Below, piece after piece: positions 27,483-28,449 of a stretch of DNA of 64,000 nt. The notes below the pieces were generated by a model that was given only the letters and a program-made list of their open reading frames with translations, was not told the origin of the DNA and ran no database searches. Numbering within the stretch: the first letter of the stretch is position 1; every line of letters begins with the position of its first letter. This DNA comes from an uncultured Clostridia bacterium (GTDB lineage: Bacteria > Bacillota > Clostridia > TANB77 > CAG-508), in the NCBI GenBank assembly GCA_934162535.1, contig CAKPJC010000001.1, positions 15,577 to 79,576 of the forward strand, read 5' to 3'. Position numbers and translations under genes: made by a program.

Positions 27483-27516
27483 AAAAGCCGACTCAATTGA
27501 GTCAGCTTTTCTTTTA
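27483..27516. terminator. bidirectional rho-independent terminator (AAAAGCCGACTC-AATT-GAGTCAGCTTTT)
   Basis: 12-bp stem with one mismatch, flanked by an A-run and a T-run; it lies between the stops of convergent genes 26918-27478(+) and 27522-28298(-). Confidence 0.65.
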
Positions 27517-27521
27517 CATAT

Positions 27522-28298
27522 TCAGTTAGTCTTATTTTTTAGTTGTATAACTTGGCTGTTGGGAGTGCGGATTTCCTTCACAACCCTCTTTTGGTTCGAG
27601 TTCATGTCTACAATCTCATAAGACACAGGTTTACATTCATAAACAGGAACGAGCTTGCTATTTCCGTCAAGGATATTTTCAAAATATCCGAATGTGATGT
27701 GGTCGGGATCCTCATGATAAGCATTCATATATCTATGATATATGACGGACTCACAGAAGTGCTGGAAAGTTTCCTGAGAAAATCCTCTCCTACGAAGATC
27801 TTCCCATTCAGTGTTAATCTTGTGAATGGCTTTCCACAGGTACTCATAATTGTGGAAAAGCATACCGTCTCTTCCAAAACTTTCCAAAAGACTGCTACTT
27901 GTAGCACGAGAAGTGTTGGAATAGATTACTGCAGAAATAACAGTTATTTTGTAACTAATTTTTCCGTCAGTGTTTCCGTTAGTGTAGTTTTCTAACACTT
28001 CAGAATGAAGTGCTTCAAGCTCACCAAAGAGCATTTTGAAAGCTTCAACATCTCCATCTTTTACGGCGTACAAGATGGTGTTTTGTACCAACAGCTTAGC
28101 AGTTATGCCAAGCTTAACAACACGTTCCCAGTGAAGCTGGTTTGTAGATAACAGCTTGATTGGACTCAGCTGTAACTTACAGAAGAAAGCTTCAACAAGA
28201 GGGATAAGCACAGTTGCACAGTGTGCCTTGATTGCGTCCTGCATAATGGTAGTTAGCCATTGAATGTAGGGGTTACCCTTTCGCTTTGACTTGAACAT
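27522..28298 (-). CDS. 258-aa hypothetical protein with anomalously high GC and foreign codon usage; candidate horizontally acquired gene (an Rx5H HEPN-like motif RYMNAYH is present but weak)
   Basis: Clean ORF with an AAAGGAGG SD. By eye the GC is about 40-45% versus under 30% in the flanks. CTG, CCG, CGG and GTC codons occur that are rare elsewhere in the window. It has its own promoter, a 115-nt leader and a terminator. Confidence 0.75.
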   Translation of the reverse strand: MFKSKRKGNPYIQWLTTIMQDAIKAHCATVLIPLVEAFFCKLQLSPIKLLSTNQLHWERVVKLGITAKLLVQNTILYAVKDGDVEAFKMLFGELEALHSEVLENYTNGNTDGKISYKITVISAVIYSNTSRATSSSLLESFGRDGMLFHNYEYLWKAIHKINTEWEDLRRRGFSQETFQHFCESVIYHRYMNAYHEDPDHITFGYFENILDGNSKLVPVYECKPVSYEIVDMNSNQKRVVKEIRTPNSQVIQLKNKTN

Positions 28299-28420
28299 AT
28301 AATTGTTCCTCCTTTTACAGATGTGATTTTAATTTATGTTAAACCGAAAAGATAGAGGAGTTCCTCACACTAATCAGTGAATAAGGAAAAGCGACATAAG
28401 ACTTTGCTTATATCGCAACT

Positions 28421-28449
28421 ATTGTACCAAATTTTTTAAAAAAAGTCAA
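28421..28449 (-). promoter_or_regulatory. sigma-A promoter for the GC-rich 258-aa gene (minus strand: TTGACT-17-TGgTACAAT, extended -10), giving a 5' leader of about 115 nt
   Basis: -35 = complement of 28444-28449, -10 = complement of 28421-28426, with a 17-nt spacer and TG at -15/-14. Confidence 0.55.

Follow-up and report, generated by a model that had tools for sequence, protein, structure and literature searches.

The open reading frame (ORF) studied here encodes 258 amino acids (aa) on the minus strand of a 64-kb window from an uncultured Clostridia bacterium (contig CAKPJC010000001.1, positions 15,577 to 79,576; the window is the whole stretch of DNA analyzed, and its positions are counted from its first nucleotide). 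Its immediate neighbors are a proline-rich 186-aa gene (ProRich) and a PF01663 phosphodiesterase gene, and the wider neighbors are housekeeping genes (ClpX, Cmk, MurD, phosphodiesterase, CBS, and AI-2E transporter). The initial annotation had described this target ORF as a stand-alone transcription unit with its own promoter and a long leader, and this was borne out: with a promoter of its own on one side and a terminator on the other, the gene is monocistronic. A consensus scan recovered the proposed TTGACT-17-TGgTACAAT promoter with 10 of 12 consensus matches plus the TG, followed by a leader of about 116 nucleotides (nt; the earlier figure was 115) up to the start codon at 28298. The promoter is identical in a sister species (locus L002; L and P numbers are our handles for other loci and family members). 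Since TGGTAYAAT is found at ordinary host promoters too, the target promoter is of the host type, and a special promoter common to GC-rich genes was rejected on the same ground. The terminator, common to the target and the convergent ProRich gene, is a palindrome with 94% complementary arms and A and T runs at its flanks, and its stem is conserved in L002. In a related species without the insert (L011), a similar CAATTG-centered palindrome lies directly 3' of the ProRich gene. The bidirectional terminator that had been taken as one boundary of the island is therefore real but native to the ProRich gene, not part of the cassette.

The G+C content of the target ORF is 0.399, compared with 0.287 for the window. 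First and second codon positions are host-like (G+C contents of 0.456 [GC1] and 0.320 [GC2]), whereas the third-position content (GC3) is 0.421 against 0.135 ± 0.021 in 20 long host genes (z = 13.5; for whole-gene G+C, z = 4.2). The gene is thus the strong compositional outlier that it had been called, although the excess amounts to 11 to 12 points overall and about 28 points at third positions rather than the roughly 15 points first estimated. Among the codons singled out at that time, CTG occurs four times and GTC once; CCG and CGG are absent from the target and occur in the other two GC-rich genes of the window. Both G- and C-ending codons are raised, not a tRNA-specific subset, and the compositional step is sharp and coincides with the ORF borders. 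We rejected a highly expressed gene with translationally optimal codons as an explanation: host GC3 spans 0.06 to 0.20, and the raised codons of the target include the G-ending ones for Lys, Gln, and Glu. Only two further ORFs in the 64 kb are equally GC-rich (Table 1), and both behave like the target, as the initial annotation had held.

Table 1. Coordinates of the target gene, its regulatory features, and related features in the window and at other loci
Feature	Locus	Position	Strand	Remarks
Target ORF, 258 aa	Window	27522-28298	-	Real ORF; unannotated all-alpha protein family
Sigma-A-type promoter	Window	28421-28449	-	-35 TTGACT, 28449-28444; 17-nt spacer; extended -10 TGgTACAAT, 28429-28421; consensus scan
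5' stem-loop, 10 bp	Window	28391-28416	-	GCGAUAUAAG-CAAAGU-CUUAUGUCGC, then U-rich tract; flagged as terminator-like; present in minimum-free-energy fold
Conserved leader element, ~65 nt	Window	28324-28388	-	CCUU..UUCACUGAUUAGUGUGAGG-loop-CCUCUAUCUUUUCGGUUUAACAUAAA; conservation and covariance model
Shine-Dalgarno GGAGG	Window	28308-28312	-	9 nt upstream of ATG; read from sequence
Bidirectional intrinsic terminator	Window	27480-27513	.	Arms 27480-27496 and 27497-27513; inverted repeat, terminator scan
Phosphodiesterase gene	Window	28496-29644	-	
Phosphodiesterase gene	L011	10001-11140	+	
Beta-CASP metallo-beta-lactamase-fold nuclease, 506 aa	Window	32188-33708	+	GC3 0.44; Lys/Arg-rich C-terminal tail; separate unit
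84-aa ORF upstream of recN	Window	41174-41428	+	GC3 0.42; separate unit
Region of the 84-aa gene	Window	41098-41428	+	-10 and initial transcribed sequence TGGTATAATATATGCATAA
TGGTATAATATATGCATAA before family member	L056	1811-1829		
2,537-aa ORF	Window	5904-13517	+	Normal host composition
Leader element copy	L002	5551-5614		
Leader element copy	L038	9904-9971		
Leader element copy	L042	1117-1181		
Leader element copy	L044	251-316		
Leader element copy	L050	742-807		
Leader element copy	L066	5903-5969		Diverged
Three tandem family paralogues	L037	40-2432		
Frameshifted family copy	L045	1925-2746		Pseudogenized
AlphaCTD-repeat gene	L038	10884-11822	-	Convergent to family gene
AlphaCTD-repeat gene	L042	2620-3567	-	Convergent to family gene
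STIV_B116-like gene	L059	1357-1740	-	GC3 0.52
GC-rich singleton	L015	8758-9810		
GC-rich singleton	L020	8685-9800		
GC-rich singleton	L022	8791-9846		
GC-rich singletons	L028	8882-9895; 7137-7772		
GC-rich singleton	L008	2804-3841		
GC-rich singleton	L011	13660-15075		
GC-rich singleton	L009	7506-8180		
GC-rich singleton	L012	5367-6008		
GC-rich singleton	L019	7907-8596		
GC-rich singletons	L010, L024, L027			

A word-indexed search returned only two protein clusters, 98% and 70% identical to the target, and an initial scan of genome contigs with subfamily peptides gave no match. An exhaustive HMMER profile search of 1.84 billion representatives yielded 63 family proteins of about 200 to 300 aa, 46 of them at E <= 1e-10. 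RDGMIFQNYExLWKxIHRxNTEWxxLxxRGFS and LDGxxKFVPVY are among the conserved blocks. Of the columns in an alignment of 49 members, none is invariant; the best-conserved polar residues are N128 (94%), K117 and R171 (88%), and E199 and K202 (86%). Neither the target nor, consistently, the 49 members matched Pfam, NCBIfam, PHROG, or PADLOC, in the last of which scattered single weak hits were all that appeared. Public sources hold no name for the family proteins, and a profile search of PDB sequences found no match. An AlphaFold2 model built on the 49-sequence alignment has nine helices and a well-packed extended C-terminal segment (predicted local distance difference test score [pLDDT], 92; predicted template modeling score, 0.88), whereas a model from 3 sequences was unusable (pLDDT, 38.6). 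Foldseek returned no fold match for the target model, the best PDB hits being designed helical-repeat proteins only. The 63 representatives, the confident model, and a ratio of nonsynonymous to synonymous divergence (dN/dS) of 0.146 against the L002 orthologue establish the target as a real gene of a real family.

A sister species (L002 to L005) carries a target homologue in the same slot, in the order ClpX, Cmk, MurD, Pro-rich gene, target, phosphodiesterase, CBS, AI-2E transporter, DUF1980, and beta-CASP. The flanking proteins are 85 to 97% identical between the window and the sister species, and the target protein is 69% identical. GC3 values in the two species, the window's and its sister, are 0.42 and 0.44 for the target and 0.44 and 0.47 for the beta-CASP gene. 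Contig counts for the dominant allele within the species were 137 for the target and much the same for its neighbors (141 for ProRich, 135 for CBS, and 137 for Cmk), so the target is fixed and not strain variable. We also fetched 28 related species by way of the phosphodiesterase gene (uncultured gut Clostridia metagenome-assembled genomes, 56 to 70% identical in the encoded protein). The target, the beta-CASP gene, and the 84-aa gene were found in none of them within 10 kb on either side of the phosphodiesterase gene. L011, L013, and L028 keep the wider neighborhood, with the slot lacking the target, and the target is absent only at the genus level or beyond. The absence from these 28 species agrees with the lineage-specific gene that the initial annotation had implied. 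Its "acquired cargo," if read as a recent arrival, does not fit a gene that is fixed in the species and has the same site and the same GC3 in a sister species.

In L011, the phosphodiesterase gene is on the same strand as MurD, so it is this neighbor that has been inverted in the window lineage. With a synonymous divergence (dS) of 1.01, a nonsynonymous divergence (dN) of 0.08, and 5 polymorphic sites in 816 nt, the gene also exceeds the other flanks in divergence and polymorphism, at a normal GC3 of 0.146. The host lineage seemingly has no close reference genome, the closest species-representative genomes being 56 to 70% identical in the phosphodiesterase and 74 to 80% identical in MurD, yet public metagenomes have yielded about 140 assemblies of it.

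We found no marks of mobility at the target borders: there was no integrase, no tRNA gene, and no Rfam or tRNA-type match in the window. Only short repeats, probably due to chance, were present, and transposon-like borders were rejected for want of meaningful terminal or direct repeats. Neither an RNA gene nor an attachment site explains a GC-rich patch at the empty L011 site, which is only the run of proline codons at the end of the ProRich gene. We likewise rejected a phage or plasmid origin, as tblastn against 50,697 phage records and searches of IMG/VR, PHROG, and plasmid collections detected no relatives of the family.

To place the target among its relatives, we retrieved the genomic contexts of family members P0003, P0004, P0044, P0045, P0033, P0049, P0062, P0064, and P0053 and of 12 gut-metagenome loci. 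At every family locus examined (more than 20), the member is a GC-rich lone gene or a set of tandem paralogues in an AT-rich host, and none of the members lies in a viral contig or in a phage or plasmid record. Family GC3 ranges from 0.26 to 0.62, compared with 0.10 to 0.26 in the flanks; the extreme is L056 (0.62 versus 0.12 to 0.13). The GARP/FYMINK ratio of 64 family proteins averages 0.42 (maximum, 0.78), and the target, at 0.46, is close to the host protein mean of 0.44. The amino acid makeup of the family is thus of the AT-genome type, and only the synonymous sites are "foreign." The GC-richer donor implied by the initial annotation is at odds with both the AT-type amino acids and the AT-rich hosts at all of these loci.

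Among synonymous third positions with G or C, 72% in the host flanks are A or T in the other species of the pair, compared with 40% in the target and 28% in the beta-CASP gene. We calibrated a two-state neutral-decay model on the host flanks, assuming residence since the species split and host-like mutation. Under this model, the ancestral GC3 would have to be 0.74 for the target, 0.87 for the beta-CASP gene, and above 1 for both the family gene and the neighboring alphaCTD-repeat gene of the syntenic pair L038/L042. The corresponding P values for G/C retention against the prediction were 0.035, 2e-11, 0.39 (not significant), and 0.006. These ancestral values are implausible and clash with the AT-type amino acid composition. 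Within the species (window versus L001, polarized by L002), we counted four GC-to-AT and four AT-to-GC changes, where host bias predicts about 5:1. Our conclusion, reached with moderate confidence, is that mRNA or codon selection or biased conversion maintains the composition, the alternative being alleles that are repeatedly replaced from an unsampled pool. This conclusion is drawn because of the consistency across genes, species pairs, and the family. Selection for GC and GC-biased gene conversion are reportedly the forces that raise synonymous GC in bacteria; literature searches turned up no account of the present phenomenon.

The dN/dS ratio of the target indicates purifying selection, and positive selection was rejected. 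The dN of 0.19 is 2 to 14 times the flank values (0.014 to 0.08), and the dS is 1.31 versus 0.34 to 1.0 in the flanks, dS being less reliable at such unlike compositions. Alleles of the same species differ on average by 2.4% of amino acids, compared with 0.5 to 1.3% for most neighbors; this roughly twofold diversity in the allele-set comparison led us to soften the label "hypervariable." Between the window and L001, 10 of 777 nt differ in the target and 1 of 1,701 nt differs in ProRich and MurD. One locus (L037) carries three tandem family paralogues, and another (L045) carries a frameshifted copy. Divergence, polymorphism, tandem copies, and a pseudogene are the dynamics of an accessory gene.

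The leader is more conserved than the gene that it precedes. Over about 115 nt of promoter and leader, the window and L002 hardly differ, and an element of about 65 nt within the leader is about 100% identical, whereas the coding sequence is only 74% identical. The element recurs upstream of family genes in L038, L042, L044, and L050, at 32 to 44% protein identity, and a diverged copy precedes a distant member in L066 (covariance model, E = 0.0016). It was absent elsewhere in the 700 kb of sequence searched, and its covariance model matches family leaders only. A leader common to the target and the beta-CASP or 84-aa gene was rejected, the element being absent there. Rfam covariance models gave nothing at gathering score and only noise at E <= 10 for the leader, and exact leader-motif scans of JGI metagenomes and IMG/VR gave no match. 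A related motif in L062 and L064, missed by the covariance model, constitutes a third leader type (CUGAUUGUAAGAGG-loop-CUCUUAC); in these two loci, the family gene lies between the cotJ operon (Mn-catalase/CotJC) and spoVAC. Family members in other hosts are also preceded by similar consensus sigma-A promoters, spacer sequence included (TTGACTTTTTATGTAAA(A)TATGGTATAMT). The 10-bp stem-loop at the 5' end of the predicted transcript is probably a 5' stabilizer and possibly an attenuator. Equivalent hairpins, with other sequences but with pairing kept, directly follow the -10 in L044, L050, L066, L045 to L049, and L056. In L053 to L055, the family gene is second in an operon, behind a GC-rich 291-aa ORF without a Pfam match, and a GC-rich hairpin with compensatory changes among the three loci lies about 30 to 60 nt upstream of the family ORF.

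The conserved element folds as a 12-bp interrupted hairpin, in which CCUC(U) has the Shine-Dalgarno (SD) sequence as an alternative pairing partner. The ordered segments CCUU, GAGG, CCUC, and SD GGAGG can pair in two ways that exclude each other, and in one of them the SD is masked. In the minimum-free-energy fold, the SD is paired with the leader CCUC (pairing probability, 0.9 to 1.0). This sequestration is predicted for the window and for L002, L038, and L042, where freeing the SD would cost 2 to 8 kcal/mol. In the leader alignment, 94% of helix cells are paired, compared with 44 to 60% in slid controls. Each copy has an apical loop of its own length and sequence, and the alignment of L066 reads as a coordinated 2-bp insertion in both arms of the apical helix (GAGGA/UCCUC to GAGAAGA/UCUUCUC); both features support structure at the RNA level. 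On these predicted folds, a translational switch is a plausible, if still tentative, role for the leader.

The reading that we favor, to which we give about an even chance, is that the target is an old, fixed, self-contained cassette whose GC-rich codon usage is a stable property of its family. The cassette would comprise a consensus sigma-A promoter, the 5' stem-loop, the conserved structured leader, a strong SD, and the 258-aa ORF, and its product would be an all-alpha protein of the cytoplasm, from a family that had lacked annotation and is endemic to very AT-rich gut Clostridia. It would have entered the slot next to the inverted phosphodiesterase gene in the common ancestor of the species and its sister, to be inherited vertically and fixed thereafter. 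The synonymous usage would be held against strong AT-ward mutation pressure in the host by selection on mRNA or codons or by GC-biased conversion. The leader hairpin may compete with the SD-sequestering pairing and so gate translation, and the protein may bind a partner rather than catalyze, in an accessory conflict-type role such as immunity or defense. Our best guess at its function, itself doubtful, is a nonenzymatic binding protein with an immunity- or defense-type accessory role, translated under control of the leader. We suggest a binding partner and a conflict role because of the helical-repeat-like architecture, the lack of a strictly invariant residue, fast evolution, tandem paralogues, and pseudogenes.

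Several points weigh against this reading. For the target alone, the excess G/C retention is marginal, and the polarized sample of eight changes is very small. Reacquisition or allelic replacement through the flanks would mimic maintenance in the decay model, and the target dS of 1.31 is compatible with such events. SD sequestration is predicted in four of six leaders, not in L044 or L050, and the leader helices show no column-wise covariation because the stems are nearly invariant. The moderately conserved polar residues N128, K117, R171, E199, K202, D211, and H159 could form an active site. Finally, the target has no homology-based function, conserved partner gene, or defense-island context, so its function is wholly inferred.

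A rival reading is that the target is an ordinary horizontal gene from a moderately GC-richer donor (e.g., gut Firmicutes with 40 to 50% GC or an unsampled mobile element), still ameliorating. AT-rich lineages would then receive the family again and again, in some cases when conserved flanks allow one allele to replace another. We regard this as possible but not probable. The sharp compositional boundary at the ORF and the absence from the 28 relatives are what such transfer would leave, and other species hold different GC-rich genes in the same slots (HIT, PIN-PhoH, kinase-like, and nucleotidyltransferase [NTase] genes). Target dS and dN exceed those of the flanks, the adjoining phosphodiesterase gene is inverted and itself more divergent, and for the window/L002 pair taken by itself, pure decay requires an ancestral GC3 no higher than about 0.64 to 0.74. 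The L038/L042 pair, however, needs a value above 1, and more than 20 loci, the most distant members included, gave no host with a matching composition. The AT-type amino acids of the whole family, the lack of phage, plasmid, or viral relatives, and borders without an integrase, tRNA, or direct or inverted repeats also speak against a donor, as do the fixation in the species and a leader that is identical in both species above a much less conserved coding sequence.

It seems improbable to us that the high GC3 stems from GC-biased gene conversion alone, acting at a hot spot of recombination without any selection on mRNA or codons. The higher local polymorphism of the target, its roughly doubled amino acid diversity and raised dS, and the rise of G- and C-ending codons alike would fit conversion. 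The adjacent phosphodiesterase gene, however, is also more polymorphic and divergent at a host-like GC3, the compositional step follows the ORF borders, and the beta-CASP gene is GC-rich without raised divergence (dN, 0.043; dS, 0.70). An increase of 0.3 in GC3 is also far above the magnitudes that are known to have been reported for bacterial gene conversion.

Least of all do we expect the target to be a HEPN/Abi-like abortive-infection RNase or toxin acquired as defense cargo, a very improbable reading to which its stand-alone, fast-evolving, patchily distributed, all-alpha character, the Rx5H string RYMNAYH, and the nearby GC-rich singletons with nuclease- or nucleotide-related domains (beta-CASP, PIN-PhoH, HIT, and NTase) had lent some appeal. 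The string, which the initial annotation had offered as a hint, is present in the target but is not a motif of the family: R189 occurs in 30 of 49 members, and H195 belongs to a 2-residue insertion that 8% of members have. HEPN and Abi_2 profiles in Pfam matched neither the target nor any of the 49 members, PADLOC gave no consistent match, Foldseek against the PDB returned no HEPN protein, and a lone toxin under a strong constitutive promoter would be self-harming. More than 20 family loci showed no recurrent partner gene, and the target itself has no antitoxin-like partner and is not in a defense island, its neighbors being housekeeping genes. HEPN membership is already contradicted.

The two companions of the target in the window are separate units. 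The beta-CASP protein has NCBIfam hits to type VII Cas14 (2e-62) and archaeal aCPSF1, both far below cutoffs; it has no CRISPR context and only distant relatives (<=30% identity), and its gene is syntenic and GC-rich in L002. The 84-aa ORF has no Pfam match and, with its dominant allele on 137 contigs, counts as fixed in the species. From the -10 into the first transcribed bases, the sequence before it is identical to that before the family member in L056, an unrelated host. The 2,537-aa ORF of the window has normal host composition.

GC-rich singletons are common in this clade and belong to recurrent families, often in the same intergenic slots. HIT/DcpS-like singletons in L015, L020, L022, and L028 directly adjoin the phosphodiesterase gene, which is the slot of the target, and a PIN-PhoH ATPase singleton in L011 is in the slot held by the beta-CASP gene in the window. 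Further families are thymidylate-kinase-like P-loop, aminoglycoside-NTase-like, and alphaCTD-repeat proteins and several without a Pfam match. The phenomenon looks clade-wide and centered on nucleotide and nucleic acid functions. The alphaCTD-repeat proteins of L038 and L042 (312 to 315 aa) contain three repeats resembling the C-terminal domain of the RNA polymerase alpha subunit and may be transcription-targeting factors; the two copies are only about 36% identical, although flank dN is about 0.1. The AT-rich contig L059, which also carries a family member, contains a GC-rich STIV_B116-like gene. A larger claim, which we consider rather unlikely, is that GC-rich synonymous codons have a function of their own and are preserved by selection across a class of self-contained one-gene cassettes in AT-rich gut Clostridia (this family and others, such as the beta-CASP, alphaCTD-repeat, HIT, and PIN-PhoH genes), joined in this family by a new riboregulatory leader. 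Possibly, such coding lets the mRNA resist AU-directed decay or host shutoff, or rare codons gate translation.

Atypical GC content and codon usage are routinely taken as signs of recent horizontal transfer. Here, a very strong signal of this kind comes with a recent-transfer reading that is contradicted by fixation, synteny, native amino acids, a family-wide offset, and the lack of a visible donor; the initial observation was confirmed, and its interpretation was partly supported. If the composition is actively maintained, the cassette would be a tractable system (one gene, recodings, and about 140 assemblies) for the forces that hold GC against universally AT-biased mutation. If GC-rich coding is functional, base composition would be an adaptive, heritable trait rather than a record of origin. 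The analysis also yields an unannotated family whose structural model is confident yet matches no fold, a leader element of about 65 nt that is more conserved than its ORF and is a candidate new cis-regulatory RNA, and a catalogue of GC-rich singleton families recurring at the same intergenic slots in uncultured gut Clostridia.

Among known systems, HEPN RNases and Abi_2 proteins resemble the target in being all-alpha, about 250 aa, and stand-alone, but Rx4-6H is not conserved in the target family, and there is no profile or structural match. Orphan immunity genes, which are reportedly found in acquired interbacterial defense clusters, are another analogy: the family is small, cytoplasmic, helical, fast-evolving, and patchy, has no catalytic signature, and includes tandem arrays and pseudogenes. 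It remains an analogy only, as the target has no cognate toxin, no recombinase or mobile context, and no sequence or fold similarity to Imm families. The leader is comparable to SD-sequestering leaders (RNA thermometers, riboswitch platforms, and protein-titrated leaders) in its exclusive CCUU/GAGG/CCUC/GGAGG pairings, kept hairpin, and variable apical loop; unlike them, it matches no Rfam family, and its nearly invariant stems give minimal covariation support.

Horizontally acquired genomic islets are said to undergo amelioration, and the target shares with them its atypical GC3 and codon usage and its lineage-restricted presence. It differs in that its GC3 has not converged while 72% of host G/C synonymous sites have turned over, and in an amino acid composition that is already host-like, with no donor found. 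Compared with a recently transferred island, it has the atypical composition but no variable presence, no mobility signatures, and no decay at the neutral rate, the decay evidence being marginal for the target alone (P = 0.035). Phage morons reportedly consist of a promoter, a gene, and a terminator that together form an autonomous insert of atypical composition between two other genes. Unlike morons, the target lies outside a prophage among core housekeeping genes, has no phage relatives, is fixed, syntenic across species, and GC-richer than its host, and uses a terminator that belongs to a neighboring gene. Like them, it is a single gene with its own strong promoter and a hairpin terminator, wedged between unrelated native genes and unlike its surroundings in composition.

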